A stretch of 64,000 bases of DNA from Alphaproteobacteria bacterium (GCA_965246755.1 OZ251979.1:9089-73088); one strand, 5' to 3'. Positions 2,952 through 45,321 are shown, counted from the stretch's first letter. Notes: generated by a model not told the origin, from the sequence alone. Numbers and translations: made by a program.

Positions 2952-2960
2952 GTGTTTGTC

Positions 2961-3548
2961 TTACCGGGCGGGTTGCGGTTCGGGCAGATTAAGCGGTGGC
3001 GCCAAATATTGGTCGGCCGGTAACGGACGGCCGCCGGGAATTTCCGCCGGTTCGTCCGGCGCCGCCGGCGCTGGCGCGACCGCCACCGGCGCGGCAGCGG
3101 TTTGCGCCGGTAACTGCGCTGCTTGTTGGCTGCGTTGCAACCACAGTGCACGGAGCACAACGACAATTGCCAGCATCCCAATCAATACCAATAAACCATT
3201 GATGGCCAGCAAAGCCCATTTCAACGGTCCACGCACCCAACGCGGTCGCGCAATGCCACCGGCATATTTCGGCGCGCGCCGCGGCTGGAACAAAACATTG
3301 CGCACCGCCTGCAGCGCCGCGGTCGCGCTATCACGGTCATTAAACGTCGCAATGGTTTGCCAGTCCGTCTCGCCCGCTGACTGATAGATCAGGGCATGCA
3401 GATTATTATCCTGCGCCAAGGTAAAACTCAGCTGATTGATGTCGCTGATTTCGCGCCGCCACAGCACCGGCTGCGCGGCATTCGGCAGATCCAGCGTCAG
3501 GATATTGCGTTCATAGGCTGCCAACGGCTGGTGCATGGTATCGATCAT
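2961..3548 (-). CDS. Hypothetical membrane protein (one TM, Pro/Ala-rich C-terminus) in the T4CP operon
   Basis: 195-aa ORF tightly packed between the two T4SS-like genes (10-nt gaps). It has a central hydrophobic helix LLALLAINGLLVLIGMLAIVVVL and a proline-rich tail. Backbone-like GC. Confidence 0.45.
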   Translation of the reverse strand: MIDTMHQPLAAYERNILTLDLPNAAQPVLWRREISDINQLSFTLAQDNNLHALIYQSAGETDWQTIATFNDRDSATAALQAVRNVLFQPRRAPKYAGGIARPRWVRGPLKWALLAINGLLVLIGMLAIVVVLRALWLQRSQQAAQLPAQTAAAPVAVAPAPAAPDEPAEIPGGRPLPADQYLAPPLNLPEPQPAR

Positions 3549-3558
3549 CTCATTTTCT

Positions 3559-4749
3559 CTAGTTTAATTTACGCTGGCCACCGGCGGCGGGCTTGCCGCT
3601 GCGATGCAAACTCGGCAGTTCCATTTCACTTTCATCCATATAGTCTTGCAAGGCGTTGACTGCCGATTCAACTTTTGGCATCGGCAGTGCGCGTTTTAAC
3701 ATGCGCTCGGCATAAAAATGCGCAGTCGCGCCGGCTGCCTCTGCATGGAAAGTGCGGCGCCCAGAATTGTTGAGCGCATACCATAAAGGCCGGTCTTGTG
3801 CGCGCAGCCATAAAAACGCCGCCGGCGCTAGCACGCCACCCTGCGCCCGGCACCAGATGACGCAATCAATCATCGCGGTGACCACAAACGCATGCTTGCT
3901 TGCAATTTTGGCCAGCTCGCCGCCGGTTTTGGGATCGCGCAGGATGCGGCGGATTTTACTTTTAAGCGGGCTGGTAAGTTTGAGACCGCGCTTAGGCGTC
4001 CAGCAATCCGCAATTTCGCTCAGCAACTGGTCGGCATCATCACGCTTGCGCGCTCCTTTCAATGCAAAGGCGGCATATAATGCCTGCAGATGAAGGGGCA
4101 ATTTATCCGCGCCCTGCCAGCGCACCCCCAGCTGTTTGACAAAAGCGCGCGCGGCCGCATCGCGGTCGATTTGCTTGTCCTGTACCGCGATCTGGTTGAA
4201 CGCCAGCCATTCTTCGGGTGACAGCGCTTCAGCAAACATCGGCAAGGTATCGGGCACCGGCTGGCCCAGCGCACGTTGCACGGCAGTCGCCGGGTTGAAC
4301 CGCACGATGGGGGTGATGATTGGCCAGCTTTTGCTTTGCGCGACAATCAGATCCTCCAGCGTATAAATTGAAGTTAACTGGTGGCCGGAGGAGAATTTAT
4401 AGCTCAAGACGCCAAACAGCGCGAGCAAGCCTACCGCCGGCCAATGAAAAAACTGCGGTACTACTGTTGCGCTGATGGCGGCAATCTGTCCCCAGGACAG
4501 GTTTTGACCGTTGGAACCCTGCAACCAGACGATCAGCTCTTGCGGCGTCGTGCGCGTACCGCCGGGCATGACCACATCATGTGCGAACAGTTTGACGATG
4601 TGCAATTCGGCAATCCGCACCAGGCGAATACTATCAATAATTTGTGTATGAAAAAAATGCCAGATAACCCAGCCGATCGCCGCCAGCACCAGGATGACGA
4701 CAATCATCACCACTGCTGAATCATCGCCTTTACCGCCACCGCCCGACAT
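3559..4749 (-). CDS. Inner-membrane protein, DotM/IcmP/TrbA-like candidate partner of the T4CP
   Basis: 396 aa with two TM helices (about residues 15-32 and 95-118) followed by a large cytoplasmic domain, and it is the first gene of a three-gene operon ending in the T4CP. The topology and position match DotM/TrbA, but the assignment is by architecture and context only. Confidence 0.35.
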   Translation of the reverse strand: MSGGGGKGDDSAVVMIVVILVLAAIGWVIWHFFHTQIIDSIRLVRIAELHIVKLFAHDVVMPGGTRTTPQELIVWLQGSNGQNLSWGQIAAISATVVPQFFHWPAVGLLALFGVLSYKFSSGHQLTSIYTLEDLIVAQSKSWPIITPIVRFNPATAVQRALGQPVPDTLPMFAEALSPEEWLAFNQIAVQDKQIDRDAAARAFVKQLGVRWQGADKLPLHLQALYAAFALKGARKRDDADQLLSEIADCWTPKRGLKLTSPLKSKIRRILRDPKTGGELAKIASKHAFVVTAMIDCVIWCRAQGGVLAPAAFLWLRAQDRPLWYALNNSGRRTFHAEAAGATAHFYAERMLKRALPMPKVESAVNALQDYMDESEMELPSLHRSGKPAAGGQRKLN

Positions 4750-5180: not shown

Positions 5181-5507
5181 TCAAAAGATCTGGACTGCTT
5201 GCGCCAAGGCGCGCTTGTCATCAGCTGTTAAATCATCCTGCTCGTTTTTGGCATATACTGTTAGCAATAAAATAAGTTCGCCTGCGACATGATAGTAATA
5301 AATGACCCGACACCCGCCGCGTTTACCGCGTCCGGCCAATGCCCAACGTACTTTACGCAAACCACCGGTGCCCGGGATGACCTTACCACTGTAAGAATGC
5401 GCAGCCAAAAAAGCGGACAGCGCATCAATTTCATTTTCAGTCAGCAGCTTCTTGGTGCGACGGCTAAAGATTGCCGTGCGTACAACCCGGATAAAGCCAC
5501 TTTTCAC
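5181..5507 (-). CDS. Type II toxin, RelE/ParE superfamily (DUF1044/COG4737, HigB-like)
   Basis: 108 aa with a family-typical core GKVIPGTGGLRKVRWALAGRGKRGGCRVIYYY...LLLTVYAKNEQDDLT. The toxin precedes the antitoxin, which is HigBA-type order. Confidence 0.7.
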   Translation of the reverse strand: MKSGFIRVVRTAIFSRRTKKLLTENEIDALSAFLAAHSYSGKVIPGTGGLRKVRWALAGRGKRGGCRVIYYYHVAGELILLLTVYAKNEQDDLTADDKRALAQAVQIF

Positions 5508-9534: not shown

Positions 9535-9932
9535 TCTTGCCGTTGCCGCAACGCATCGCGGATATCTTCCAGCAACACTTCGGTGCGGGATGGCGCAGCG
9601 GGCGGTTCACCCGCACGTTTGCGCAGCATCTTATTCACCAGCTTGATGACGATAAACATCGCCAGCGCGACTATCATAAAATCAAACAGATGCTGCAGGA
9701 ACAGGCCGTAATTCAGCGTGACTGCCGGCGCCTTATCAATCGCTTCTTTTAAGACTACTTTGTAGTTGCTGAAATCAGTGCCGCCAATCAGCATGCCCAA
9801 GGGTGGCATAATGACATCCGCCACCAGTGAGGACGTAATCGCGCCAAAGGCAGTGCCGATCACGACCCCGACCGCGAGGTCAATCACATTGCCGCGCATG
9901 GCGAATTCACGGAAATCTTTTAAAAAGCTCAT
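9531..9932 (-). CDS. mscL: Large-conductance mechanosensitive channel
   Basis: [26 protein letters not shown] is the MscL N-terminal signature. The ATG at 9932 has an AGGA Shine-Dalgarno 6 nt upstream. The track ORF extends to a GTG at 9950. Confidence 0.85.
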
Positions 9933-9940
9933 CAGTAATC

Positions 9941-10810
9941 CTATTGGCACTTGAGGGTTTTAATTTCGCTTTCCGCCTTCGTCGCAATGCTGTTGGCGGC
10001 GGCTGGATAATCTTTGGTCAATTGCCGCAGGACGATACAGGCTTCTTTGGTGCGTTTTTGCTGGGACAATGACAGGCCCATTTTTAATAGAGAGTCCGGC
10101 GCCTTCTGGGCTTTAGGATATTTTTGATAAGATTCCGCAAACACAGACGCCGCGGCCTTGTAATTGCCGCGCGCATAATAGCTTTCGCCCAGCCAATATT
10201 GCGCATTAGCGGCCAGTGTATGATTGGGATTTTTGGCGAGAAAATCGCGGAAGCCCTTTTCCGCCGCTGGATAATCCTTTTGCTGCAGAGCGGCATAAGC
10301 CTTTTGATAAGCGGCCTCTGGCGTTGCAGTTGCGGCCACTTCCGGCGCGGTCTCATCTTGGGTCGATGCATTGTCGGCCACTGGCCCCTCGCCGGTTAGC
10401 GTGTGAGGTGCCTCGGTCTGTGCCTGGGGCGAAATTGGCTTCTTTTCAAGCAACCCAAAGCGCACATCATTATCGCTTTTCATTTTATCGAGATCGGTCT
10501 GCAGCTGCTGATTTTGAAAATTGGCGCGCTCGACCTTGTCAGTCAGATCGCGGATCTGGCGTTCCATATCGGCCACGCGGTCGTCACCGCCACCCAGCGC
10601 GCCCAATGACGAGGTCACGGCGCCCGGCACATAACCGCCGCTGCGCGACAATTGCTGGACCTGGATTTCCAATTGCGTCAGGCGATCCAGCAGCGCACGG
10701 CTGTCGGTCTGCGCCATGGCGGAACCAGCATTTACCGATACAAAAAAGGCAAGTGCGACTGCACCTGCCTTTGTGTAAATCGCCCTATAATTCAGGGGGG
10801 ATTTCGTCAT
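9941..10810 (-). CDS. cpoB: Tol-Pal system protein CpoB/YbgF (TPR repeats)
   Basis: Signal peptide, coiled-coil N-domain, C-terminal TPR repeats ([14 protein letters not shown]...), and a position directly after pal. Confidence 0.8.
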
Positions 10811-10830
10811 AGAGAAACCTCTAAGCTCTA

Positions 10831-11358
10831 TTATTGAACCGTCACCATGGCGCGGCGGTTTTGTGCCCAGGCCGCTTCGTCGTTGCCTTCCACAGCCGGA
10901 CGCTCTTTACCATAGCTGACAGTGGACAGACGACTATCCGGCACGCCTTGGCCGGTCAGGTAATTTTTCGCCGCGGTCGCGCGGCGCTCACCCAAGGCCA
11001 GATTATATTCACGCGTGCCGCGCTCATCGGCGTGGCCTTCCAATGTTGCCGTCACATTGGTGTGCGCCTTTAACCACTCTGACTGGCGGTCCAGGGTCGC
11101 ACGCGCTTCACCCGACAGGTCGGAACTGTCGGTTGCAAAAAACACGCGGTCTGCCACATCAGTGCCCATGCCAGCACCGTTCGCGCCAGCACCGCCATTG
11201 GCGCCGTTATCGCCATAGGAAAACTGCGAGTTGGGCGCCGCGCCGCCCATGCCGCTGGCATCACTGCCATCCGCATTTTTTGGGGTGTCGCTGCACGCCG
11301 CGAGGAATGCCACGGCGGCCAATGCTACTAGCCAAGATTTTTTCATATTTGTCTCCAT
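10831..11358 (-). CDS. pal: Peptidoglycan-associated lipoprotein Pal (OmpA-like)
   Basis: Lipoprotein signal ending ...LAACS, and an OmpA C-like domain with the motif LEGHADERGTREYNLALGERRA. Confidence 0.9.
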   Translation of the reverse strand: METNMKKSWLVALAAVAFLAACSDTPKNADGSDASGMGGAAPNSQFSYGDNGANGGAGANGAGMGTDVADRVFFATDSSDLSGEARATLDRQSEWLKAHTNVTATLEGHADERGTREYNLALGERRATAAKNYLTGQGVPDSRLSTVSYGKERPAVEGNDEAAWAQNRRAMVTVQ

Positions 11359-11509
11359 ACAAGGTCAGAATTCGAATTCAGTAAGTCCTTGTTAAAAGGG
11401 ATTCACGCCCTTCGCAACCCGCCAAACCATAAATTACGCATTTGAAATGTTAGCAACGCAAATAATTTTCTGTTTGCCAAATAATCGTTAAATCCGGTAC
11501 ATATCAATT

Positions 11510-12442
11510 ATGCCTTTATATGATATGCAAAAGTCGATTGCGCACGGTTGTTTCAATCCAGCAGTTATTATTGTCCCCGGCGTCGTGACCGACCGCGCCG
11601 GTTACCTGGCGCCCATTCAAGGCGAACAATTGCTGGCCGCAATGGCAATACGCGACGGTCTCTACCATGCTGGCCAGCCTATGCCCGCAATGGTCTTTCA
11701 AGCCGCCGGGCATGGCAGTCTACAGCTGGAACCCGATCCGCTGCCCGCACATTTGCAGCTGGCCGCACCGCGCTTTGGCGCGCCCAGCTATGCCGAGCGC
11801 GCGCAACAGTTTTTAACCGCGCTTGATATCTGTGACCCGGACATGGCGCGCGAAGATTGCATCAAGGGTGAACTTGCGCTTGATACCTTGATGGAAGCAC
11901 TGGAAACCATATTGCGCATGGCCGGGCGCTGGGATTTGTTGTTACGCTTGCATAAAAAATTGCGCGACTCGCTTTACGCTCCCACATCGGCTGAATGCAA
12001 TTTAGCCGCTAAATGCCAAGCCTATCGCGAAACAGGTGAGCCAGTGCCGGTGGTGCTGGTCGGGCCTGATTATAATATCGCGCGGTCCGTCTGGTATCTT
12101 AAAACCTATGCTGAACTGGCCGGCATGCCGTTGAATTTGCGCCGCATAACCATCCCATCAAAAAACTGGCTGCAAGAAAATCATGCTGAATATGTCGCCG
12201 ATATTCAAAAACGGCTGGATAAGGCCATTGTCGATTGGCAAGATCTAAAACACATAATAATTGCCGCAGCTGATCCGCTGGGGGCCCTTGTTGATCATGT
12301 GCTGACCGAACACGATTGTTACAATCACGGCCCTTTTGTCATGACCGTGCAAAGTCAGCCCAAAGGCGGCGTACCTGCCGCCTTGGATACCACCGGCACC
12401 GCTGAATATTATTACCGGCGCGTTGGCGCGCTCACGCCCTAA
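11510..12442 (+). CDS. Hypothetical protein inserted between tolB and pal on the opposite strand
   Basis: 310-aa ORF with backbone-like GC and no recognisable motifs. It overlaps the tolB stop convergently by 4 nt. Confidence 0.45.
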
Positions 12443-16100: not shown

Positions 16101-16853
16101 TTATGTGACAGGCGCTGCCAGCGCTTTAATAATCGCCGTCGGGATTGCCGCCGGTCGCGCCGCCAAACTGATACAGGCCAGTTCAACCTTTAACCGCGCG
16201 CATAGCTGCCCGTAACAAGAGATATCCTGATCAAGCGTCAGCCGTGTTTTGGTCAGCGCAGCGACCTGTACCGTTACCGCCAGCAGGTCATCCAACCGCG
16301 CCGGTTTTCTGTAATCAATCTCGCAGCGGCGGACGATAAACAATATGGGTGGAACCGGCAGGCACACGGCAGCCTCTACCGCTGGGCGCATATTACCCGA
16401 TGCGCTGCCCTGCGCATGTTCTGCCAGGCTACCGGTTTTCGCAATGGGTGCAGTGACAGCCGATATATCAGTGGCGGTAGCCTGGTCTGCGCTAGGCAAG
16501 GCGGCGCTGACATTTAAGGGCGCCATGCTGCGTGGAGCGGCCATCATCGTTTTATGTGTTGGCGAATTTTCATCTGCCGACTGAGGCCAGTCATATCCGG
16601 CGGCATGGCCCGGTTGTGTGAACTCCGGCGCCAGCTCAGACTGACCAGCGCTCCGCGCACAGCCGGACTGGCTGAGCCCTTGTGACAAACCAGACTGGCT
16701 GAAACCCAGCCCGCGCAGCCATTCTGTCCGCGCCCGCTCGGCAAATTTCAGATAATTGGCATAATAAACAATCCCGCCGCCATCGGTGTCTTCCCAATAG
16801 ACGCGAGTTAAGTGGGTGAAGGCAATTCCGGTCGTGTTTTCTTTAACTGTCAT
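16101..16853 (-). CDS. ybgC: Tol-Pal-associated acyl-CoA thioesterase YbgC (4HBT hotdog) with a roughly 100-aa low-complexity insertion
   Basis: The N-terminus [36 protein letters not shown] and the C-terminus ([17 protein letters not shown]...) match YbgC. A Ser/Ala/Gln-rich insert ([11 protein letters not shown]...) makes it 250 aa against the usual 140. Confidence 0.7.
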
Positions 16854-16911
16854 AAAATCGTAATGATAAACTGATAGTGTAAATATTGAAAGATACAGCT
16901 ATATATTAAGT

Positions 16912-19485
16912 ATGACCCAAAGTCCCCAGGAATTACCATTTGAAACTCCTCGCTCAGGCCCAAAAGCGCGGCCTGTGCGCCCTGCCAAAGCTGCGCGCCC
17001 TCCTTCAGCTGCACGTTCGGCTTTAAAATTTGCTTTTTCTCCTGAAATCGGCCGTAGTTTTGGAAGTATTAATTTTGCATGGACCACTTTTATAAATGTA
17101 ATTGTACAGTTGTTTGTTTCTGCCAAACTAATTAATAAACATGCCCTAGATAAACAAGAAAATATTAAACTTAGCCACGTAATTAGTCTTGCTTACCGTA
17201 ATCTAACGTGGAACAGACAGAATGTCCGACAAATAGTATTATTCTTTGGCGTGATGGGGTTTTTGTTATTTATGTTTTTAACGGTACTAACGCTTTTAAT
17301 GCAACTAATGACCGGCGTTGCTATGGCTCAAGGACCTAATCCATCCACAAATTCTGGTGATAATTTATTAAATTCTTTATTTAACCTTACTGATAATGAT
17401 ATTATTCCAAAGGCTTTAGGATCAATGTTGGCTGTCTATAGTCAAGGCATGCTTATTTTAGGTGGCATTATTTTATTATTTCTTATTGTATCTACTGTAA
17501 TGGAAACTGCCCATAGCGGTGTACCTTTTGGTAAGACCTTTAATCAAACTTGGACCCCAATCCGGCTAGTGTTTGCAATAGGATTGTTAATCCCTTTATC
17601 GAGTGGGCTTAATTCAGGACAATATATAGTTTTAAATGTAGCAAAATGGGGTTCTACGCTGGCTGGCGAAGCTTGGGGAAAATTTGTTGGTTATTCAGCC
17701 ATTCTACAAGGCGATCCTGGAACATTATGGACAGGGTCAGCACGTCAAACTGTAAACCAAATTATGGCAATGGAAACATGTCGCGTACGTAGTCTACAAG
17801 CGGGCAATAATATTAACATTGTTGACGCACCAGGGACAGCTAATAATGCTGGTCTGCAGCCGGGCAATACTTCTGTTGATCCTGATGCTGGCCTAACCTT
17901 ATCAGGCAATCGCGTGGTTTATGATGAAATTCAATATCGCGGCGACACGATAGGCAATCAAACCGGTTGCGGCACGGTGCGTTTTGCGCGACTACAAAGG
18001 CTACCATTTGCCAGCATTAGTGTTAATCCTAATGATTTTAAAATTGCTAACGCGGTCAATGCCATTTGGTCTGATACCGGTGAATATCTAATGCACGCGC
18101 GTTTTTCAATGTACCAAAATGCAGTGCCTATTGCTGCCAGAATTGCTGAAGAATATGCATCGCATCTCGATCCTTCGAATGCTCGCTACTTTAAGGAAAT
18201 GCCACCACATATCAAGCAAGATTATGAAAGGCTAGTCTCTACTTATTCTGACGCTATGGATATGCATGCTAAGCGTGCTATGGCGGCAATGCAACAACGA
18301 ATTGGTAAAAACCTTGAAACTGAAATGAACCAACTTGGCTGGATTGGCGCACCTGTGTGGCTACATAAAATAGCCCAATTAAATGCACAGCTGCAGTCAG
18401 AAGCGGCAACGCAACCAATGTTTATCAATGTTCCTGGTGTAAAAAACACTGCACCAGAGCAGAGCTCGGTTAAGATTACGGGCACAGCTAGTATTGGACC
18501 AGGCCAAGCACAAGATGATGTTAACAACTTTCTATCTGATACACCTGCTGGAGTAGTTGCACAAAAAGGCGAACAAATATTGCAGGATTGGATAGATAAT
18601 TTTGCTTCACGTATTGGTTGTCAAGACGGCGATAGCTGTGTCAGCAATTTTCAATTATACTCAAACAATCCTTTATCGGAGATTGCGCTTCTAGGGCAAA
18701 AACTTTTTTTATGGGGCACTATGGGTGTAAAAGCTTTAATATTCGCTGCAGCTATTAGTACAGTACCTTTAATTGGCAGTGCCATTTCTATTATTGTGCC
18801 AATTGCTTCTGTTTTAATATTGGGCTTAATTACCGCTGGAACATTGATGGGTTTTGTTGTTCCATTGCTACCCGTTATGCGGTTTATGGCAGGCATTTTG
18901 GGGTGGATCATGCTGGTTTTTCAAGCTGTCTTGGCTGTGCCCCTCGTTGCACTGGTTCATTTAAACAAAGAGGGCGAAGGATTAAGTGGCAAAGCCGGGG
19001 ACCGCGCATATCTTATGTTATTAGGTATAGTGGTTCGGCCTCTATTAATGACCTTAGGGCTAATTTGCGGTTTATTGTCTTTCAATTTAATTGTAAAAAT
19101 CGTTAATCTTTTATTTGTCCCAGCTCTATCAGCAACGTTTGCGTTAAATGATATGAGTTTATTTCATTTTATTGTAATGACTTTCATATATGCTGTATTT
19201 ATCTTTGCATTAGGAAATTCAGCTTTTAAAATGATTGATATTATTCCTGATCAGGTAATTGGCTGGATTGGCGCCAATCTTGGCAGCCAAGGTACGCAGA
19301 ATGATGCCGACCAAGTTGCCAAAACTGAAGCTTTCGCTGGGGCAGTTCTCATATCTAAAGGTGCTGAGCCATTGAGCAAGGCGGTGTCAGCTGTTGGTCA
19401 AACTGCTAACAAAAAAGTTGCAGAAAAATATAAAAAATATCTTGATAAAAAGGGGGGTGGTAGTGATGATACCGGTAATTTATAA
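16912..19485 (+). CDS. Large polytopic inner-membrane protein, T4SS DotA/TraY-like or VirB6-like architecture (AT-rich island gene 1)
   Basis: Two or three N-terminal TM helices, a hydrophilic domain of about 400 aa, five or six C-terminal TM helices, and a Lys-rich tail. The composition switches from GC-rich to AT-rich near 17060. The first internal ATG is at 17254, which gives 743 aa, so the real start probably lies between 17110 and 17254. Confidence 0.5.
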   Translation: MTQSPQELPFETPRSGPKARPVRPAKAARPPSAARSALKFAFSPEIGRSFGSINFAWTTFINVIVQLFVSAKLINKHALDKQENIKLSHVISLAYRNLTWNRQNVRQIVLFFGVMGFLLFMFLTVLTLLMQLMTGVAMAQGPNPSTNSGDNLLNSLFNLTDNDIIPKALGSMLAVYSQGMLILGGIILLFLIVSTVMETAHSGVPFGKTFNQTWTPIRLVFAIGLLIPLSSGLNSGQYIVLNVAKWGSTLAGEAWGKFVGYSAILQGDPGTLWTGSARQTVNQIMAMETCRVRSLQAGNNINIVDAPGTANNAGLQPGNTSVDPDAGLTLSGNRVVYDEIQYRGDTIGNQTGCGTVRFARLQRLPFASISVNPNDFKIANAVNAIWSDTGEYLMHARFSMYQNAVPIAARIAEEYASHLDPSNARYFKEMPPHIKQDYERLVSTYSDAMDMHAKRAMAAMQQRIGKNLETEMNQLGWIGAPVWLHKIAQLNAQLQSEAATQPMFINVPGVKNTAPEQSSVKITGTASIGPGQAQDDVNNFLSDTPAGVVAQKGEQILQDWIDNFASRIGCQDGDSCVSNFQLYSNNPLSEIALLGQKLFLWGTMGVKALIFAAAISTVPLIGSAISIIVPIASVLILGLITAGTLMGFVVPLLPVMRFMAGILGWIMLVFQAVLAVPLVALVHLNKEGEGLSGKAGDRAYLMLLGIVVRPLLMTLGLICGLLSFNLIVKIVNLLFVPALSATFALNDMSLFHFIVMTFIYAVFIFALGNSAFKMIDIIPDQVIGWIGANLGSQGTQNDADQVAKTEAFAGAVLISKGAEPLSKAVSAVGQTANKKVAEKYKKYLDKKGGGSDDTGNL

Positions 19486-19506
19486 TTTAAAAATAAAGGA
19501 TATAAA

Positions 19507-21180
19507 ATGCTGTCTTTAAATAAAATGTGGGACTGGATTTTATCGCCCTGGCGTGAAGATGTTGCCAGTAACCTGGATGATATTTTTGAACCGAATAAAG
19601 ATCATGGTTTAGGGAGTGCAATTGTTCAGGGCTTTATGGCTTTGCGTAAAACTGGGGGTAAATCTTTATCACCGGTTATATTTAGGGCAAAAATAAAGTT
19701 TTGGATGTATTGTCCGCCCTTTCGGTCACGCCAGGATGCCGCCCAAATTGTTTTAGGTCCTGGGACGAAATCTGATCCTGTTCAAGGTACGACAACGGGT
19801 TGGGTATATGAATCTCCAACAGAAGGGGTTTATTGGACCGCCTCACCTAAAGATGCGCAAGCCACCCAACAAGCGGCTGTTTCTCGCGCTGTTAAACGTA
19901 AATATGACAAAGACCCATGGTCTCAAGGCTTAAATCCTGGTGGTAAAGGTAAATATGTACAGCAAGTTTCACTCTATTTCAAACAAAATGCTATTGCTGC
20001 CCATGGCGTAAATTATGGACGTCTGCAAAATGATCGCTCTCAATGGTGGACAGTCAACTATGCCCAAAATTACAGAAATCATAAATTGTTGCCATTTTAT
20101 GAAAAGGAAAAGGAACTAACCAAAAGGTTTGAAGGTGGTTACGCTATATATTATAATGTAGGCGCAGAAAATTTTGATCAATTTGAGCATGTTATTTTCG
20201 ATGGTATTTGCACATTATGTCCAATTGATGAAGAGCATGATCCAACACCACAAGCAAACGAAATTCGTGTTAAACGTGATATAGCATTCAATGGCGAAAC
20301 AATTAAAGCGGGTGAAACAGTCACAAGAGAGGTCGCACATAAGCTTTTTCGTGAAAAATTATCACGTAATGATAGGTATGATATTACGCTCGCAACAAAA
20401 GCTGCCACTGCAGTATTGTTTCAACAGTGGCGGCGGTGGGATGTCCGTGATCCGGGCTTTTTAAATCCAACAAAAGATGACAAGATAGCTGCTTTAAGTG
20501 GCATGCCTCATGATGATGCACTGTCAATCTTTAGCAACATGTTTGCTTTATCTCGTCAAGTTGGCGGACAAGGCAACTATGAGATGCGCAATAGCTGGAA
20601 TGGCTACGATGATACTGCAGCAGAAGTAATTTCTATTACTAGAAATAGTGTAACTCAAGATGGGCCTGTAATTGGAGGTGCTGATTTACACTATGCTCAG
20701 GTGATAGAATGCTATCGGCAAATCATGCTAATGCGCAATATGTGCCAAAAAGAAAATTTTCGAGATGTAATAGCCGAAGACATGGGAGAACCTAAAGATT
20801 TAAACAAGCTTGATCCTGAAATTCCTCAAAATGCAGCTATTCTTGATATTCGTGTTGCTTTCCAAAGCCTTATTCAAACACTTGCCCGAGATGGAGGCCA
20901 ATCACCAGCAGAAGCATTAAGAGATCTAAATTTAGCTCATCTAGGCGAAGAAACTCAAATTGAGGGTACGGATGTTAAAATTGGGCAGATCTTAAAATTT
21001 GCTTATCTGATATCTGATAAAAATGAAAATGGGGTTAAAAAATCCCCGGAATATCCGCCGGAACTAACAAAACGCTCTAATGCTGTACTTGGCCCTGAAA
21101 TTGTATCCAACTTAGGGAAAGCATTTCGTCGTCAGGTTATGAAAGAAAACACAGGCCCGACACCATTTTGGGGCGCTTAA
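19507..21180 (+). CDS. Hypothetical soluble protein (AT-rich island gene 2)
   Basis: 557-aa AT-rich ORF 21 nt after gene 1, with no TM helix and no recognised motif. Confidence 0.5.
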   Translation: MLSLNKMWDWILSPWREDVASNLDDIFEPNKDHGLGSAIVQGFMALRKTGGKSLSPVIFRAKIKFWMYCPPFRSRQDAAQIVLGPGTKSDPVQGTTTGWVYESPTEGVYWTASPKDAQATQQAAVSRAVKRKYDKDPWSQGLNPGGKGKYVQQVSLYFKQNAIAAHGVNYGRLQNDRSQWWTVNYAQNYRNHKLLPFYEKEKELTKRFEGGYAIYYNVGAENFDQFEHVIFDGICTLCPIDEEHDPTPQANEIRVKRDIAFNGETIKAGETVTREVAHKLFREKLSRNDRYDITLATKAATAVLFQQWRRWDVRDPGFLNPTKDDKIAALSGMPHDDALSIFSNMFALSRQVGGQGNYEMRNSWNGYDDTAAEVISITRNSVTQDGPVIGGADLHYAQVIECYRQIMLMRNMCQKENFRDVIAEDMGEPKDLNKLDPEIPQNAAILDIRVAFQSLIQTLARDGGQSPAEALRDLNLAHLGEETQIEGTDVKIGQILKFAYLISDKNENGVKKSPEYPPELTKRSNAVLGPEIVSNLGKAFRRQVMKENTGPTPFWGA

Positions 21181-21209
21181 TTCAACAAAATCAACTAAGG
21201 AGACAATTA

Positions 21210-22088
21210 ATGGGAAATTTTAGTTTAACAAGAAGTAAAGGCGGCAGGGCTATAGTTAAAGCACTGAAACTTGGCGCTTTAGGATTTGTAGCATGGCAAG
21301 GAAAAGGCTGTTGGGATTCCTATCATAGTGATCCAAATGATGCTCAATTAGGACGTGTGAATCCAGTTATCACAACACCTCCAGTGCCGCGTCAATCCAT
21401 TTTACCAAATTTTGAGCGTTCAAAAGAAAACTTTGCTAAAAATGCGCGCGATACTTATAAAGTTCCTGTTGAATATGACAAGAAAAATATTCTCTATGTT
21501 GGAAGTGGATTACCATCCGCAATAGGCGACAAGCCAATCTTAAATAGTAAGGATGAGGGTGACCTTATTCCTGTTGAACCGGCACAAACGCAGGCACTGG
21601 CGCAAGTTATTCAAAAGCATGAACAGCGCAAACAAAAACTTGGCACAAATGGACAGCTTTATATTGTCTTTTTACCGCGTGTAAAAGATGACAGTGGAAA
21701 TGAAATTAGGGATAAGGCGCATATTATTGGTTATGATGTTCCAAATGCCACCAAACCAACTTATGCAATAGATTTAGATACAGGATTTGTTTATTCTGAA
21801 GCAATAACTGAACGCGAACAAAGTCAGCAACTTCTCAAAAAACTTTTTGCGATGCCCAATCATCAGCCAGTTGATTTTTTTGCTTTAGAACGAGACATTA
21901 TGAATGAATCTTTAGATCATGCAAAACGCTATGGCACAAAAATTGGTGAAAAAACGGATGGTCATCCAGAATTAAAATACGGTGAAATTCGTTGGACTAG
22001 TCCTACCGCTGAAAAAAAATATGGTTTAGATGCTGAGGGTGATCTGCCGACGCCGCGTTCTCGTATAAACCGTGGACCTAATCCATAA
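21210..22088 (+). CDS. Hypothetical signal-anchored protein (AT-rich island gene 3)
   Basis: The ATG at 21210 follows a strong AAGGAG Shine-Dalgarno (the track ORF begins at 21168). It has an N-terminal TM anchor AIVKALKLGALGFVAW, and an intrinsic terminator follows it. Confidence 0.55.
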   Translation: MGNFSLTRSKGGRAIVKALKLGALGFVAWQGKGCWDSYHSDPNDAQLGRVNPVITTPPVPRQSILPNFERSKENFAKNARDTYKVPVEYDKKNILYVGSGLPSAIGDKPILNSKDEGDLIPVEPAQTQALAQVIQKHEQRKQKLGTNGQLYIVFLPRVKDDSGNEIRDKAHIIGYDVPNATKPTYAIDLDTGFVYSEAITEREQSQQLLKKLFAMPNHQPVDFFALERDIMNESLDHAKRYGTKIGEKTDGHPELKYGEIRWTSPTAEKKYGLDAEGDLPTPRSRINRGPNP

Positions 22089-22120
22089 ACATGCTTTCTA
22101 AAAAATTTTAAATCCTTACA

Positions 22121-22148
22121 ATCGCGCTTCATGGGCGCGATTTTTTTT
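22121..22148 (+). terminator. Rho-independent terminator after the three-gene island
   Basis: Perfect hairpin ATCGCGC-ttcatgg-GCGCGAT followed by T8. The track's yejA-like start ATG at 22131 lies in the loop. Confidence 0.6.
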
Positions 22149-24131
22149 GCAATGATAATGCTAGCGGTGCAGCTGGTGACGTTTGGTGCCTTTGCCGATG
22201 TACCCGCTGACACGTCTATTGTCGGCTTGGCGAAGCCAGATGCGATGCCGTCTGCCGTCGCTGCAAAAGGCACTTTTAGCCCGCAACACGCCCTCTCCTT
22301 ATACGGCACACCTAAATACCCCGCGACCTTCCAGCATTTCGATTATGTGAACCCTGATGCACCGAAGGGCGGCGCGATTAATCTGGCCTCGCTGGGTGGG
22401 TTTGACAGTTTGAACGGTTTTATCCTGAAGGGTGAAGCCGCAGCAGGGCTTGATTATCTATATGATACGCTAATGACCGGCTCGCTCGATGAGCCGTTTA
22501 CGCAATACGGCCTGCTGGCGGAGAGTGTTGAGGTCAAGGAACTGAGCGAACGTCCCGAGGTCCCGGGTCGCATCACGCCTTCGCCAAGGCTGCGGCGCGA
22601 CTTGCCCGGGATGACAACTCCAACAGCTGCAGCGCCGGTAGGTGGCCGCACTGTCACCTTTACGCTGCGGCCGGAAGCAAAATGGCAGGATGGCGAACCC
22701 ATCACGCCCGCCGATGTGATTTTCACCTTTAACACATTGCGGACCAAGGGTCACCCGTCCTATCGCTCCTACTTCGCGGATGTCGCGAGCGTTGCGCAGT
22801 CCGGCCCCCGTGCCGTGACCTTTACACTCAAACCTACGCAAAACCGCGAACTGCCGATGATCCTGGGCGGTCTCCCCATTCTGCCGGCACATTACTGGGC
22901 CAAACATGATTTCAGCGCGACGACATTAACCGCGCCGCTTGGCAGCGGACCCTATAAAATCCAGACTGTCGATGCACCGCGCCGCATTACCTATACACGC
23001 GATCCCGATTACTGGGGCCGCAACCTGCCGGTCAACACAGGCCGCTATAATTTTGATACGCTCAATTTTGATTATTACCGCGACAGCAATGTCTTGCTGC
23101 AGGCGTTTTTTGCCGGCGCGATTGACCTGCATCAGGAAAATGTCGCCAAAGACTGGGCGACCTCCTACCAGACCAAACCGGTTTTGGACGGCCGTATTAA
23201 AAAGGAGGAAATCACCCACCACCTGCCTGCCGGCATGCAGGCCTTTGTCATGAATTTGCGTAAACCGGTGTTTCAGGACCGCCGCGTGCGCGAGGCGCTC
23301 AACCTCGCCTTTGATTTTGAATGGGCCAACAAACATGTCGCCTTTGGCGCCTATACGCGCACGCAAAGTTTTTTTGAAAATTCCGATTTGGCGGCACGCG
23401 CGCTGCCATCGGCGGATGAATTAAAACTGCTGGAACCATACCGCGATCAACTCCCACCCGAAGTTTTCACGAGCATATTTCATACCCCGCAATCCGACGG
23501 CAGCGGCGATAACCGCGCCAACCTGCGCCGCGCCAAGCAATTGCTGGAGGAGGCCGGTTATACGCTGCACAATGGTGTGATGGTCAAGGACGGCCAACCG
23601 CTGGAATTCGAAGTGCTGCTGGTGCAGGATGCGTTTTTGCGCTGGCTGAACCCGCTGGCGCGTAACCTCGAAAAAATTGGCGTCCGCGTTAACATCCGTG
23701 TTATTGACACTGCGCAGCTACAGCGCCGCCAGGACCAGTTTGATTTTGACATGTTGGTCGGCACCTTTCCGCAATCGAACAGTCCCGGTAATGAACAGCG
23801 CGATATGTGGATGTCGGCGCGCGCCGAGACAAAGGGCAGCCGCAATTTAATGGGCCTTAAATCCCCGGTGGTGGATATGCTGGTTGGCAAGATTGTCAGC
23901 GCCAATTCATTGGCAGAATTGCAAACCGCCTGCCGCGCGCTCGACCGCGTGCTCAGCTGGGGCTATTATGTCATCCCCAACTGGTACATCAATAATTTCC
24001 GCGTTGCTTACTGGAATAAATTCGGGCGGCCCGCCGTGAACCCGCCCTATGGGCTGCCGATTGTGGATACCTGGTGGAGTCGCGAGCAGACGAGTAGACG
24101 AGTAGACGAGAAAAAACTACAATCAAAATAA
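22131..24131 (+). CDS. ABC transporter substrate-binding protein, family 5 (YejA/microcin C-type oligopeptide binding)
   Basis: 666 aa with an N-terminal hydrophobic signal, YejA-like blocks (NLASLGGFDSLNGFILKG, TFTLRPEAKWQDGEPITPADVIF) and an SBP_bac_5 fold. The true start is probably the ATG at 22152 or 22158. Confidence 0.75.
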   Translation: MGAIFFAMIMLAVQLVTFGAFADVPADTSIVGLAKPDAMPSAVAAKGTFSPQHALSLYGTPKYPATFQHFDYVNPDAPKGGAINLASLGGFDSLNGFILKGEAAAGLDYLYDTLMTGSLDEPFTQYGLLAESVEVKELSERPEVPGRITPSPRLRRDLPGMTTPTAAAPVGGRTVTFTLRPEAKWQDGEPITPADVIFTFNTLRTKGHPSYRSYFADVASVAQSGPRAVTFTLKPTQNRELPMILGGLPILPAHYWAKHDFSATTLTAPLGSGPYKIQTVDAPRRITYTRDPDYWGRNLPVNTGRYNFDTLNFDYYRDSNVLLQAFFAGAIDLHQENVAKDWATSYQTKPVLDGRIKKEEITHHLPAGMQAFVMNLRKPVFQDRRVREALNLAFDFEWANKHVAFGAYTRTQSFFENSDLAARALPSADELKLLEPYRDQLPPEVFTSIFHTPQSDGSGDNRANLRRAKQLLEEAGYTLHNGVMVKDGQPLEFEVLLVQDAFLRWLNPLARNLEKIGVRVNIRVIDTAQLQRRQDQFDFDMLVGTFPQSNSPGNEQRDMWMSARAETKGSRNLMGLKSPVVDMLVGKIVSANSLAELQTACRALDRVLSWGYYVIPNWYINNFRVAYWNKFGRPAVNPPYGLPIVDTWWSREQTSRRVDEKKLQSK

Positions 24132-24210: not shown

Positions 24211-25329
24211 ATGATCTCTTATATTCTCCGCCGCCTGCTGCTGATTGTCCCGACCCTGCTCGGCATCATGACGCTGAATTTCCTGATTGTGCAGGCGGCC
24301 CCCGGCGGCCCGGTCGAACAGATGATTGCGCGCGTCCAGGGCAATGCCGTGGATGCCACCTCACGCGTCGGCGGCGCGGCCTCCAGCGATGTATCGCCCA
24401 ACGCGATGAGCCAAAAGAATTTTGACAGCGCCAGTGCCGCCCCATCGAAGTATCGCGGCGCCCAGGGCCTCGACCCCGAATTTATCAAGGAGCTCGAGCA
24501 TCAGTTTGGCTTTGATAAGCCGCTGTGGGAACGCTATCTCATTATGCTTAAAAGCTATGCCACTTTTGATTTTGGCAAAAGCTATTTTCGCGACACGCCG
24601 GTTATTCAACTCGTCATGTCCAAACTGCCGGTGTCCATTTCACTGGGGCTGTGGACCACGCTGCTCGTCTATTCCATTTCTATCCCGCTTGGCATTCGCA
24701 AGGCGGTACGCGATGGCTCCCATTTTGATATCTGGACCAGCGGCATAATTTTCGTGATGCATGCCATCCCCAGTTTTCTGTTCGCAGTACTTCTGATCTT
24801 GCTGTTCGCGGGCGGGGAATATTTTGCGTGGTTTCCGCTGCGCGGGCTGGTGTCTGACAATTGGCACGATCTCGACTGGCCGCATAAAATCTTCGATTAT
24901 TTTTGGCATATCGCACTGCCGGTATTGGCGATGGTCGTGGGTGGTTTTGCGTCTCTTACCATGCTCACCAAAAATTCCTTCATCGATGAGCTGGGCAAGC
25001 AATATGTATTGACCGCGCGCGCCAAGGGCCTGTCGGAACAGCGTGTGCTGTATGGTCATGTCTTCCGCAATGCGATGCTGATTGTGATCGCCGGTTTTCC
25101 ATCCGCCTTTATCAGCATGCTGTTCACCGGCGCGGTGCTGATTGAAGTGATTTTTTCATTGGACGGGCTGGGGTTGCTGGGCTTTGAATCCGCAATGCAG
25201 CGCGATTATCCAGTAATGTTCGCAACGCTCTATATCTTCACGCTGATTGGACTTGTCATGAACCTTATTAGTGATGTGACTTATATGTTGATTGATCCGC
25301 GCATCGATTTCAACCAGCGGAGCGATTGA
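24211..25329 (+). CDS. ABC transporter permease (YejB-like, BPD_transp_1)
   Basis: 372 aa and about six TM helices. The N-terminus [19 protein letters not shown] is typical of DppB/YejB permeases. Confidence 0.8.
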
Positions 25330-25916
25330 TGGACATGATAAAAACTCTATTGCCACAACGCCCCAGAGGATGGAGCGAACATTATGTTTGCATCCTTTGG
25401 ATCATTAACTTTTTGATTGTCACAGTACTGCTAATAGCAAAAAATTTTCTTACTTTTCATACTTATATTTTTTCCGCCTTAAAACAACAAGCGGACTTCA
25501 ACCATATAATTTTCTCTGTTCTTACTATGATGGGAAGCTTGATTCTGCTTATCAAACCAAAAGTTTTTCTTCCCGTGGTCGCTGTCAACGTTTTAGCCAT
25601 GTTGCTTGCTAAATTTGGCGTGCTTATTGCGTTGTTTACAACTGTGTGGAGTGCGTTGTGGGGATTATATTACATTATTAAAAATATTATCATTAAATTT
25701 AATGACCCCTTGGAACAAAACATCAATCTTTACCGGCACATTTTCATATTGCTCTGTGCATTTACACTGTTGAACGGGCTTATCAATTATGACTTCGGCT
25801 TTAGCGGATTTAGTGAACAAACATTCTTCACAATTGGTGTCATGGTCAGCCATGTCATAACCATCGGCTGCGCTTTTTTCTTGGCACGCAAAATATTAAA
25901 AATGTCTCATGATTAA
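25326..25916 (+). CDS. AT-rich polytopic membrane protein inserted between the two permease genes
   Basis: 196 aa and about five TM helices. The ATG overlaps the yejB-like stop (ATGA), and the 3' end overlaps the yejE-like start by 8 nt. Its GC content is far below the flanking genes. Confidence 0.5.
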
Positions 25917-32338: not shown

Positions 32339-33409
32339 TCATCCGCGTGTTATAATTGCGCCTAAATCTTTGGCCATACGTGCTCTTATTTTATCTGCCT
32401 GCATATCCGAGTTTGCACCACCATAATTTTTAAAATTAGAAATTTCTTGCCAAGTTTTATTTTTCAATAAGAGGGAGTGTGCCTTTAACAACTGCTGAAT
32501 TTCATTAGGGTCAACGAGAGTGGTATCGCCATATAAGTATTCAAAAATAGTTTTAATTTCCTGCTTCTCCACATCGGTAAGCAAATTTTTATCGCCATAA
32601 ATCATAATAACATCTTGTTTCATTGCGAGTTGCGGCATTGTCAATTCAAGCAATAATGACCTATCTTTAAAAGGATTAGGCCTGTTAATTTCGTGTGCCA
32701 AAGAATGCAAGACGGTTTGGATATAATCATCTGAGCAGCCATGCGTTTCACAACTGTTCTTTATAATATCGTATGCAGTTAACTGCAGCTTTCGCTTTTC
32801 TGCTATTTTTTCATATCGTGCGATAGCTAACAGGCTGTCGGCTGCATAAAATTCGCCATCCACATCCAGTTGTTTTCGTCTTTTTAAAAAGAATTGTTTT
32901 ATCTTCGTTAGCGCATTTTGAAATTCTGGTTTTTTTGCTTGTTCTGACTTAAGGTTAAATAGTTTTTCTGGATCAATAATTACGTCAGATGGGTCGCAAG
33001 CATAACAATTTTGCGGCACATAATTTTTTTCGTTTAGAAATTCAGCAAAAGTATCTAACACAGCCAAATGATTTTGGTCACAGTCAAAGCATGATTTAAT
33101 CGTAATAAGACTGTTGGAAGTTTGCACCAAATCAAATTTCAAATCGCGTTGCTTCAACTTAATAACCAGCGTGTAAAATCCATTATCTTCTTCAGAACTG
33201 ATAAAACCATTTCCCGACTGATAGGCGTCAAACAAAAAATGCCGCAACAAGCCTTCGGGTAGGGTATTTTTGTCTGAGGTGTAAAACTCGCCCTGTGGCA
33301 AAGGTTTTGAATTATCGGCGTTATTTGAACATAATATGCATTGCGCAAAGGCGTTTGGCATTTGCCCAAAAAGTAAAATTATTAATATGAAAAAGACTCT
33401 TTTCATCAA
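32339..33409 (-). CDS. AT-rich secreted hypothetical protein (signal peptide, Cys-rich N-region)
   Basis: 356 aa with the signal peptide MMKRVFFILIILLFGQMPNAFA. GC is far below the backbone. The start overlaps the lpdA stop (ATGA), which implies translational coupling. Confidence 0.55.
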   Translation of the reverse strand: MMKRVFFILIILLFGQMPNAFAQCILCSNNADNSKPLPQGEFYTSDKNTLPEGLLRHFLFDAYQSGNGFISSEEDNGFYTLVIKLKQRDLKFDLVQTSNSLITIKSCFDCDQNHLAVLDTFAEFLNEKNYVPQNCYACDPSDVIIDPEKLFNLKSEQAKKPEFQNALTKIKQFFLKRRKQLDVDGEFYAADSLLAIARYEKIAEKRKLQLTAYDIIKNSCETHGCSDDYIQTVLHSLAHEINRPNPFKDRSLLLELTMPQLAMKQDVIMIYGDKNLLTDVEKQEIKTIFEYLYGDTTLVDPNEIQQLLKAHSLLLKNKTWQEISNFKNYGGANSDMQADKIRARMAKDLGAIITRG

Positions 33410-38837: not shown

Positions 38838-39716
38838 TTACAACGGCTCCACAACACGATCTGCCGTCACGCCAACCGGCTGACGCAACGCCTTTGCCCA
38901 GGCATCGCCAATGAGGATGTTCTCTCTATCGAGCGCCAGCGCTTTGCCATCCATGCGATCACGTAACATAGCGACAACATCGGTCACTTCTTGGTCGGCT
39001 TCAAAATTCAGACAATACCATAGCGTTGTTACAGCCATCACACCTGATGGTTTGTCACCATCATAATCAGTGATAGCAATCCGCGTTGAAAATAAATCAT
39101 ATAACTTTTGTGCATCCAGGTGCTGCGCTAAAAATTCCATATTTTCTGCAGAATTGTCACTATACCAGTAGCCGTCATTAACATCTAAATAACCTCTTCT
39201 GACCTTGAGAATTGGCACACCGGTTTGTACGCAAAATTCTTCCTGATGTGTTTGATAATATGCGACCAGATCACCTGCATCTATTGGCGTCACAACGGCT
39301 TTAAAAACGTCTGTTTCCACAGCGGCAAGATAGTTTTTTTCTGCATCTGACTGATCTGCAGCAGCAAGGCGCGCGGCGGACGGAACATCGTGAAACAAAG
39401 CTTCAACAACGTCTTTTTCACCAAACAAAGGCATGTTTTCAGCAAGGAAATTTTTCCACTGAATGATTTCAAGACGTTTTTCTAAAGCAGTTTTCTTTAA
39501 CAATGCAACAACCAGCAACTGATCTGCAGCATAATCCACGGTTGTTTCTAATAAGTTTTCATCTCCATAAATACCATCGGCCTCAAAGTCTAAAATAGAA
39601 AAGGCATCTTCAGCGCTTAATTTTTCAATCTCAGCTAATAGCTTTGACCGGTCTTCATCAGAAATGTCTTGCGCTTTCGTCTTAAGGATTTCGCCCCATA
39701 GTTCTAATGTATTCAT
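38838..39716 (-). CDS. Hypothetical acidic protein
   Basis: 292-aa ORF, moderately AT-rich, with no recognised motifs. A candidate terminator lies downstream. Confidence 0.45.
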   Translation of the reverse strand: MNTLELWGEILKTKAQDISDEDRSKLLAEIEKLSAEDAFSILDFEADGIYGDENLLETTVDYAADQLLVVALLKKTALEKRLEIIQWKNFLAENMPLFGEKDVVEALFHDVPSAARLAAADQSDAEKNYLAAVETDVFKAVVTPIDAGDLVAYYQTHQEEFCVQTGVPILKVRRGYLDVNDGYWYSDNSAENMEFLAQHLDAQKLYDLFSTRIAITDYDGDKPSGVMAVTTLWYCLNFEADQEVTDVVAMLRDRMDGKALALDRENILIGDAWAKALRQPVGVTADRVVEPL

Positions 39717-39794: not shown

Positions 39795-40202
39795 TTATAA
39801 ATCCTTAAGCCGTACCATCTGTGTTGGGTATATCCCCGCCGCCGCATCGTAAAATTTTTGATCCGCCGTCACCAGTTTCGCGTCGCGTTGCAAGGCCAGC
39901 GCTAGATACAGGCAGTCGTAGATAGGATGATTAAGTTGCAGCGCAAGTTGCAATCCTTGTTCCAACAACAGCCCATCGCTAACAAATTCAAGCGGGACGC
40001 GCCGCAGCTTTTGCAAGCCATCAATTGCTGTCGCGGCAAAAATCCGTTTCTGAATTACATTAGTGCGTAAAGCGTTGGCGCATTCCACCAATATATAAGC
40101 TGGCGCGATTAAGTTTTGGCCGTGCAAGCGAATGGCTTTATCGCTGTCGTCTTCCGCCAAAACCCATTTTAGGGCGACTGATGCATCAACAACATATGTC
40201 AT
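39795..40202 (-). CDS. vapC: PIN-domain toxin VapC
   Basis: MTYVVDASVALKW... PIN N-terminus with the conserved acidic residues, and a 4-nt overlap with the upstream antitoxin gene. Confidence 0.8.
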   Translation of the reverse strand: MTYVVDASVALKWVLAEDDSDKAIRLHGQNLIAPAYILVECANALRTNVIQKRIFAATAIDGLQKLRRVPLEFVSDGLLLEQGLQLALQLNHPIYDCLYLALALQRDAKLVTADQKFYDAAAGIYPTQMVRLKDL

Positions 40203-41857: not shown

Positions 41858-41963
41858 AACAAAACTCCTGATAATAAGATGGTTTTGAAACACATGCGGT
41901 TAAAATGCAAGCGTGATATACATCCCGACTTCCCAACCAGAGCAACAACGCGTAAAAGACATT

Positions 41964-42332
41964 ATGACCGCCGCCCAACTTGCCGAATATCTGCCGATCC
42001 TGCTGTTTTTGGGCGTTGCGGGCGGCATCTCGGTTGCAATGCTGATGGGGTCGTGGCTGCTCGCCAAGCAAAAACCGGATGCGCAAAAAAACTCACCCTA
42101 TGAATGCGGGTTTGAAGTCTTCGCCGATGCGCGTAACAAATTCGACGTGCGGTTTTACCTGGTGTCGATCCTCTTCATCATCTTCGACCTGGAGGTCGCG
42201 TTTCTGTTTCCCTGGGCGATTTCCCTGGGCAAAATCGGCCTGTTCGGGTTTTGGTCGATGGTAGCGTTTTTAAGCTTGCTGACCATCGGCTTTATCTACG
42301 AGTGGAAAAAAGGCGCCTTGGAGTGGGAGTAA
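41964..42332 (+). CDS. nuoA: NADH-quinone oxidoreductase subunit A
   Basis: [41 protein letters not shown] is the NuoA signature. The track ORF starts at a GTG at 41913. Confidence 0.9.
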
Positions 42333-42371
42333 TTTGATTATTTTAAGCGCTTAATAGCTATCAATTATTTA

Positions 42372-44113: not shown

Positions 44114-44114
44114 C

Positions 44115-45303: not shown

Positions 45304-45321
45304 GCCGTTATAAATCCGTCC

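Follow-up and report, generated by a model that had tools for sequence, protein, structure and literature searches.

The window analysed here is a 64,000-nucleotide stretch of DNA (GCA_965246755.1 OZ251979.1:9089-73088) from the 1.93-Mb genome of an alphaproteobacterium; genes were examined within these 64 kb, and positions are window coordinates unless a metagenome contig is named. Between ybgC and yejA the window contains an AT-rich block (16854-22148) with three co-directional open reading frames (ORFs): gene 1, assigned below to the DotA/TraY family of type IVB secretion proteins, gene X (gene 2) and gene Y (gene 3). A first-pass annotation, made from the sequence alone, had described this block as an island carrying a secretion-type membrane protein and two proteins without recognisable domains, and had suggested its horizontal acquisition.

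The block is the lowest-GC 5.3 kb of the window (GC content of 0.403 versus a median of 0.511). The 500-nt windows from 17001 to 22000 have GC of 0.34-0.46, and both flanks 0.50-0.61. GC at third codon positions (GC3) is 0.31, 0.28 and 0.24 in genes 1, 2 and 3, respectively, and 0.59-0.66 in ybgC, tolQ, yejB, dotL and dotM. The right border of the AT-rich stretch lies near 22150. On the left side, the short AT-rich intergenic region is followed by a GC-rich patch from 16912 to about 17050; AT-rich sequence starts from there, in agreement with the compositional switch noticed earlier near 17060. Together, the three ORFs seen in the first pass take up 97% of the block. With 871 codons, the longest open frame exceeds the maximum of 224 obtained in 1000 shuffles, and the genes are therefore real.

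Gene Y most likely starts at ATG 21210, which is preceded by an AAGGAG ribosome-binding site. With this start the junctions are 21 and 29 nt long and free of overlap. Thus, the 21-nt gap reported earlier is retained, and the overlapping junction reported with it arises only if the upstream TTG 21168 is taken as the start of Y. Since the gaps are short, both downstream genes have ribosome-binding sites and a single terminator follows, dotA, X and Y would be co-transcribed as one operon. The promoter is presumed to lie in 16854-16911 or just inside ybgC; a consensus scan revealed no strong sigma-70 match inside this intergenic region, and the nearest match on the plus strand is located at 16738-16765. 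The intrinsic terminator, proposed earlier at 22121-22148, was recovered as the top terminator-like site in the scan of the region. Its 10-bp stem (22120-22142) is followed by T8, and the hairpin is present in the minimum free energy fold (-12.8 kcal/mol). The first ATG of the longest yejA ORF, at 22131, falls inside the terminator loop; yejA therefore probably starts at 22153 or 22159. Coordinates of the features are collected in Table 1.

Table 1. Features of the dotA-X-Y locus, the coupling-complex genes of the window and the third gene of the module in related contigs
Feature	Sequence	Position	Strand	Description
Intergenic region	window	16854-16911		58 nt, AT-rich (GC 0.31-0.37), between divergent ybgC and dotA
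dotA/traY (gene 1)	window	16912-19485	+	857 aa; TIGR04346, PDB 9ngy, hydropathy, N-termini of homologues
Gene X (gene 2)	window	19507-21180	+	557 aa, soluble; AAGGA ribosome-binding site 7 nt upstream
Gene Y (gene 3)	window	21210-22088	+	292 aa; AAGGAG ribosome-binding site upstream
Intrinsic terminator (predicted)	window	22120-22150	+	10-bp stem, 3-nt loop, U8
dotL/trbC coupling ATPase	window	708-2951	-	TrbC_conju 394 bits (cutoff 800); TraG-D_C, TrwB_AAD_bind
195-aa membrane protein	window	2961-3548	-	between dotM and dotL; one transmembrane segment, Pro/Ala-rich tail
dotM/icmP	window	3559-4749	-	NF033890 DotM_IcmP 208.8 bits (cutoff 230); PF23127 DotM_C 167.6 bits
Third gene of sister-clade module	L002	17340-18437		likely zinc metallopeptidase
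Third gene of sister-clade module	L083	15818-17023		likely zinc metallopeptidase
Third gene of sister-clade module	L084	15808-16854		likely zinc metallopeptidase

Gene 1 and the DotA/TraY family

The product of gene 1 matches the NCBIfam model TIGR04346 (DotA_TraY) with 288.9 bits (cutoff 100, E 9.3e-86), its residues 152-787 being aligned with positions 5-656 of the 656-position model. With the equivalog model of Legionellales DotA, NF033886, the score is 163.2 bits (cutoff 500), and the match is good at the C-terminal helices only. Gene 1 is thus a member of the family and not an ortholog-level DotA of the Legionella type. The sole PDB match is DotA of Legionella pneumophila (9ngy/9nh0, E 3.9e-23). 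A ten-member clade profile matches 9ngy DotA with E 1.7e-42 in two blocks, the N-terminal transmembrane (TM) pair (residues 15-157 of the PDB chain) and the C-terminal hydrophobic helices (677-988 of the chain); in this profile comparison the central extended domain of gene 1 remained unaligned with Legionella DotA. Gene 1 keeps all positions that are invariant in the clade alignment. On sequence grounds, gene 1 encodes a DotA/TraY-family protein of a type IVB (Dot/Icm or I-type) secretion system. This assignment is an ordinary one, as it follows from the standard family model.

The first-pass annotation had left the choice between a DotA/TraY- and a VirB6-like protein, and had made its proposal dependent on structural similarity to some component of a type IV secretion system (T4SS). 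Gene 1 does match such a component by sequence, namely the solved L. pneumophila DotA, and both the TIGR04346 and the 9ngy matches favour the first name. The tie to VirB6 is structural only: DotA has been described as the structural counterpart of VirB6, and IcmX as the counterpart of VirB5 (10.1101/2025.06.23.660953). The Pfam TrbL/VirB6 model returned nothing for gene 1 at E up to 1, and DotA-type proteins differ from the type IVA VirB6/TrbL proteins by a large inserted extended domain.

Topology was taken from a Kyte-Doolittle scan and not from a dedicated predictor. Hydrophobic segments were found at residues 108-126, 179-197 and 215-233, followed by a hydrophilic part of about 350-360 aa (residues ~240-595), five to six hydrophobic helices at 598-768 and a basic tail. 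This is the architecture that had been proposed for the protein. In Legionella, DotA forms a pentameric inner-membrane chamber built on a plan of two N-terminal TM helices and five hydrophobic helices, which is common to the DotA/VirB6 pentamers, and its extended domain docks the IcmX pentamer (10.1101/2025.06.23.660953). By analogy, the alphaproteobacterial DotA would pentamerise in the inner membrane via its N-terminal TM pair and five C-terminal hydrophobic helices, and the pentamer would serve as the chamber of the translocation channel. The variable extended domain would then face the periplasm and dock a partner.

Gene 1 had been given a length of about 740 aa; it encodes instead 857 aa counted from ATG 16912. 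The N-terminal part of about 105 aa, which begins with MTQ and contains the motif KFxFxPEIGRSF, aligns with the homologues P0006-P0009, and this Pro/Arg/Ala-rich tail was found in 5 of the 5 clade relatives examined. A start at the internal Met near 17252 was rejected on the GC3 of the 5' end and on the alignment of the tail with homologues. The tail is presumed to be cytoplasmic. In contig L001, which carries the closest relative, the DotA tail is split off in a neighbouring frame (L001 9682-9960; main frame 9863-12373). This is probably an assembly error, the contig being labelled 3x; the alternative is a real frameshift.

The conserved tail also accounts for the GC-rich 5' end of the gene, which had been taken as a sign that the island was inserted into, or fused with, a resident sequence. 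The first 149 nt have a GC content of 0.54, with GC at the first and second codon positions of 0.62 and 0.66 and a GC3 of 0.33. The excess GC is due to Pro, Arg and Ala codons. A fusion or insertion junction at this place is contradicted by the GC3, which is like that of the rest of the gene, and by the presence of the tail in homologues.

Gene 1 has the same N-terminal hydrophobic leader, TM pair, extended domain and five C-terminal helices as L. pneumophila DotA, and in both cases dotL and dotM occur in the same genome. The extended domain differs in length (~530 aa in Legionella and ~350 aa in gene 1) and is unalignable, and the conserved ~105-aa tail is additional in gene 1. The neighbours differ as well: Legionella dotA lies next to the divergent icmV-icmW-icmX cluster, whereas gene 1 is followed by X and Y. 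TIGR04346 is shared with TraY of the I-type plasmids, as is the location of the gene at or near the 3' end of an operon. Unlike these genes, gene 1 is chromosomal and has housekeeping flanks with no relaxase nearby among the scanned genes; it is only ~24% identical to the best plasmid matches (Martelella, Xanthomonas). In IncI plasmids, the entry-exclusion gene ExcA sits downstream of traY. No match of X or Y to an ExcA model was obtained in the NCBIfam or Pfam scans.

Genes X and Y and related loci

The X protein is hydrophilic, with an isoelectric point of 6.5 and no hydrophobic or TM segment. The Y protein has a basic N-terminus, a weak hydrophobic segment at residues 14-28 and a hydrophilic C-terminal domain of ~255 aa; it is apparently membrane-anchored by this weak segment. 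Both had been described as having no recognisable domains, and this holds: neither gave a meaningful match to Pfam or NCBIfam (E up to 1) or to PDB sequences. In a word-indexed search of 5.8 billion clusters, X and Y each matched only themselves, and in an exhaustive HMMER search of 1.84 billion representatives X matched itself alone. Single-sequence AlphaFold2 models were unusable, with mean confidence (pLDDT) of 33 for X and 38 for Y. No IcmX homologue was detected, and the Pfam and NCBIfam scans of X and Y revealed no effector signal, eukaryote-like domain or toxin fold.

Metagenome contig L001 encodes the closest DotA (P0005, 39% identical). Its dotA is followed, in this order, by a 686-aa gene, a 332-aa gene, yejA, two small genes, yejB, yejE and yejF. 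Synteny of the three genes in relatives, on which the proposal of an operon-like module had also been staked, is therefore present, as the dotA-X-Y order recurs upstream of yejA in L001. Identity between the window and L001 is 71% for yejB, 70% for yejE, 57% for yejA, 39% for DotA and 26% for Y, and is marginal for X. For DotA taken in parts, identity is 53-58% in the TM modules and 33% in the extended domain, which would suit a fast-evolving interface with a partner. The L001 module has the same composition bias, with GC3 of 0.32-0.38, and the flanking genes there have GC3 of 0.52-0.65.

Comparison of Y with the 332-aa protein of L001 showed 26% identity over 197 aa (pairwise E 8e-8), a phmmer E of 2e-6 in a set of 1196 proteins and a Smith-Waterman z of ~10.6, and each of the two proteins has a single hydrophobic segment ahead of the conserved part. 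These alignments indicate that the two are homologous. The match of X to the 686-aa protein was marginal: the pairwise BLASTP E was 0.004, and the Smith-Waterman score was 61 against 40 +/- 5 for shuffled sequences (z ~4), with none of the 300 shuffles (0/300) reaching it. Searches with tblastn and phmmer for X and Y in ~120 related loci found only the L001 Y, and a metagenome scan with the Y alignment gave no match. When the DotA alignment was used for such a scan, full-length identity to the relatives obtained was at most ~33%. All the named records among the nearest DotA loci are Alphaproteobacteria, Micavibrio or a metagenome-assembled genome labelled 'Bdellovibrionales'/Pseudobdellovibrionaceae; the remaining nearest loci carry the labels Pseudomonadota or proteobacterium only. 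X and Y are real and co-oriented, probably co-transcribed, lineage-restricted and very fast evolving.

A sister clade known from soil and rhizosphere metagenomes has a DotA that is 31-32% identical and possesses the same N-terminal tail. Two genes, of 677-796 and 348-401 aa, follow its dotA, and both are conserved within the clade. A seven-member profile of the sister-clade X proteins matched window X at residues 124-223 in hhalign with E 1.2e-3 and a probability of 19%, among ~10 comparisons. The pattern in common is KY.D..DPW ... QN.I ... QNYR ... GYA, which is suggestive only of a motif-level core shared by window X and the sister-clade X family. The third gene of the sister-clade module is soluble and has a conserved HEAxH, a downstream QPAExDAR motif and weak hits to the DUF6782 metallopeptidase; judging from these motifs, it likely encodes a zinc metallopeptidase. 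No profile similarity between this gene and window Y was detected by hhalign.

In several loci of the sister clade the module is found together with features of mobile elements. In L083, tRNA-Phe is followed by genes for an integrase, a Fic protein and a relaxase, and then by a 230-aa gene, dotA, a small TM gene, X and Y. The tRNA-Phe occupies L083 4017-4092, and the 17 nt of its 3' end recur (16/17) 13.1 kb downstream, at 17218-17234, past Y. The L083 segment 4017-17234 is thus a classical integrated mobilisable island. No other secretion genes are found on this island, and it is odd that a mobilisable island lacking a mating channel should carry a DotA. In L085, tRNA-Asn is located directly 5' of dotA. 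L002 has an integrase-arm fragment, and toxin-antitoxin genes occur near the module in L002 and L084. The resemblance of the window module to the tRNA-integrated mobilisable islands lies in this sister locus, where tRNA-Phe, integrase, relaxase and att-like repeats surround dotA-X-Y; none of these mobility features was found in the window.

In other alphaproteobacterial lineages, the genes 3' of dotA differ, and a family match for them is very rare. Tandem DotA/TraY paralogs of ~900 aa each, three and four in number, occur in Micavibrio aeruginosavorus and a related genome (L020:7135-15610, L029:4340-15306); the genes that flank them are housekeeping ones, for ABC-F, an M50 RseP-like protease, MlaC, LptF/G and an M17 leucyl aminopeptidase-like protein. 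Seven marine Micavibrionales genomes have been reported to contain I-type protein secretion systems that lack a relaxase (PMC9418006).

Coupling-complex genes and the rest of the window

The T4SS coupling operon which had been reported elsewhere in the window was identified at 708-4749 by the dotL and dotM matches (Table 1). It lies 12 kb from dotA, and its dotL and dotM have a host-like GC3 of 0.64-0.66. The 195-aa membrane protein encoded between them showed no family match in NCBIfam or Pfam. It was considered as DotN/IcmJ and rejected in view of its TM segment, its Pro/Ala tail and this negative result; it may be a lineage-specific component of the coupling complex.

A series of housekeeping genes lies between dotM and dotA: ftsH, a PP-loop tilS-like gene, a cation-efflux gene, mscL, a TPR cpoB-like gene, an OmpA-family pal-like gene, tolB, presumed tolA/tolR (unscanned, named by position only), tolQ and ybgC. 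Those 3' of the block are yejA-like, yejB and yejE; ybgC, tolQ, yejB and yejE are at or near the model cut-offs. The gene called yejA encodes a family-5 solute-binding protein and is named from its adjacency to yejB/yejE and from being 57% identical to its L001 counterpart. No tRNA or Rfam match was found in the whole window, no direct repeats flank the AT-rich stretch, and no integrase or relaxase was found among the scanned flanking genes, with no relaxase in the 56 scanned ORFs of the window.

The ybgC gene (16101-16853, minus strand) encodes 250 aa, and the thioesterase model has 126 positions (133 bits, cutoff 141). The model match consists of two stretches parted by a Ser/Gln/Ala-rich insert of ~120 aa. 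A 196-aa polytopic membrane ORF with GC of 0.37 and no family match (25326-25916) lies between yejB and yejE, which are adjacent in L001. In the window yejE is followed by purH, and in L001 by the yejF ATPase.

Further AT-rich genes are scattered over the window. The nuo operon (41913-60564; nuoA 41913, nuoB 43538, nuoC 44115 and, at 58510, an unscanned 684-aa subunit-G-like ORF) is interrupted by AT-rich genes for a Phd antitoxin (44775-45077), a HAD hydrolase (46254-47123), a GNAT acetyltransferase (49308-49808) and a GmrSD restriction enzyme (54220-56013, GC 0.33). Other AT-rich islets are located at 32339-33409, 38838-39716, 60500-61700 and 62544-62831, and none of them is similar to X or Y. 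Scans of their larger ORFs (356 and 292 aa) gave no NCBIfam or Pfam match; the ORFs at 60500-61700 and 62544-62831, which are small, were covered by reading alone. Near AT-rich islets there are also genes for a PIN toxin (39795-40202) and for RelE (5181-5507).

Origin of the module and the place of X and Y

Taken together with dotL and dotM, gene 1 is most likely part of a type IVB system whose genes are dispersed over the chromosome, and the description of the block as a dispersed piece of a secretion system remains the best one, given the coupling genes elsewhere in the window. DotA would work with the dotL/dotM coupling complex. We consider it probable that dotA-X-Y as a whole is a type IVB DotA operon with DotA-linked genes X and Y, which was borne by an ancient island and became fixed near yejA. 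In such a history, a small mobile island of the type still seen in the sister clade would have brought the module into an ancestor; the module would then have lost its mobility genes, become fixed just upstream of yejA and kept its AT-rich composition since fixation.

The insertion is old because L001 has the module at the same site and with the same AT bias while yejB and yejE of the two are only 70-71% identical; with a split this deep, any transfer must be ancient. Of the horizontal acquisition proposed in the first pass, the foreign-like composition and the tRNA-integrated island of the sister clade support the general idea, and the module was probably once mobile. The window itself has no integrase, tRNA or flanking repeat to show for it. 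Composition alone cannot date the transfer, since the AT bias is conserved across the deep split and the sister module is on a mobile island. That the composition has not equilibrated could arise from selection, from repeated replacement at the same site or from local differences in mutation or repair.

Most likely, X and Y act with DotA as accessory or partner proteins specific to the system, or else are its substrates. Of the two, Y is the better candidate for a periplasmic partner of the DotA extended domain. The main rival to an accessory or partner role sees in X and Y translocated effectors or toxins, carried as cargo in a hypervariable slot 3' of dotA. The variation of this slot between alphaproteobacterial lineages, the metallopeptidase-like third gene of the sister clade, the divergence of X and Y, far faster than that of DotA, and the lack of any homologue of X among the 1.84 billion representatives all suit cargo. 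The scans for effector signals, eukaryote-like domains and toxin folds came out negative, however, the apparent membrane anchor of Y suits a machine part better, and the possible motif-level core of X and the sister-clade X family suggests a conserved role. Cargo is therefore kept as a possibility to be reckoned with, though the less likely one.

A bolder and rather doubtful view is that dotA-X-Y is a self-contained, transferable 'channel-tip cassette' of alphaproteobacterial type IVB systems, in which a DotA with a fast-evolving extended domain and its lineage-specific partner or cargo genes travel on small tRNA-integrated mobilisable islands apart from the rest of the machine. The AT-richness would then be kept by selection, for example through binding of MucR, an alphaproteobacterial silencer (PMC9410896). 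If this were true, a resident system could swap its host-facing end.

It is improbable that the locus is the remnant of an integrated I-type conjugative or mobilisable element, with TraY left behind together with cargo and idle in any machine. The score of gene 1 against the Legionellales DotA cutoff (163 bits versus 500), the relaxase and integrase adjoining the sister-clade module, the conjugative TrbC model as the best match of dotL and a dotA composition unlike that of dotL/dotM would all fit a remnant. Yet none of the three ORFs is broken, and they are tightly packed and have ribosome-binding sites; DotA covers the full model and keeps all clade-invariant positions; the module has stayed at a single site on both sides of a deep split; and dotL/dotM stand intact among housekeeping genes, with no relaxase in the scanned ORFs. 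Least credible of all is a recent genomic island, an AT-rich block lately inserted between ybgC and yejA by horizontal transfer with its composition still undrifted: the GC3 of 0.24-0.31 versus ~0.64 in neighbours, the AT-richness shared with accessory genes of the window (toxin-antitoxin, GmrSD, GNAT) and the sister-clade island would agree with it, but the same site and bias in L001 (DotA 39% identical), the borders free of integrase, relaxase, tRNA and direct repeat, and a GC-rich 5' end that is a protein feature and not a junction speak against it.

Several observations weigh against the favoured reading of an ancient, island-borne DotA operon. The gap in GC3 between dotA (0.31) and dotL/dotM (0.64) means that separate histories or even separate systems are possible. 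In the 64 kb covered, out of a 1.93-Mb genome, dotL and dotM accompany dotA, and core genes such as dotB, dotC, dotD, dotG, dotH and dotO were not seen. Neither structure nor sequence ties X or Y to any T4SS component, and X as a Sec-exported analogue of IcmX or VirB5 was rejected, as it has no signal peptide. Window Y and the sister-clade third gene being unlike, the third gene is not conserved across the wider clade. As for the operon, the z-score of the terminator hairpin against shuffles is weak (-1.2), and L001 has no terminator between Y and yejA, where the gap is 20 nt.

A good understanding of type IVB systems has been gained only for Legionella and Coxiella. The locus described here adds an intact and divergent DotA from an alphaproteobacterium with a probably small genome, in which the genes of the system are scattered among housekeeping genes. 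It is less exotic than first proposed; the interest that remains lies in the orphan genes X and Y, the persistent AT bias and the mobile dotA-X-Y island of the sister clade. In recent structures, DotA and its poorly conserved partner IcmX are placed at the channel centre as a gatekeeper. If X or Y is an IcmX-like partner or a substrate, the locus would show the evolutionary replacement of the host-facing end of such a system.

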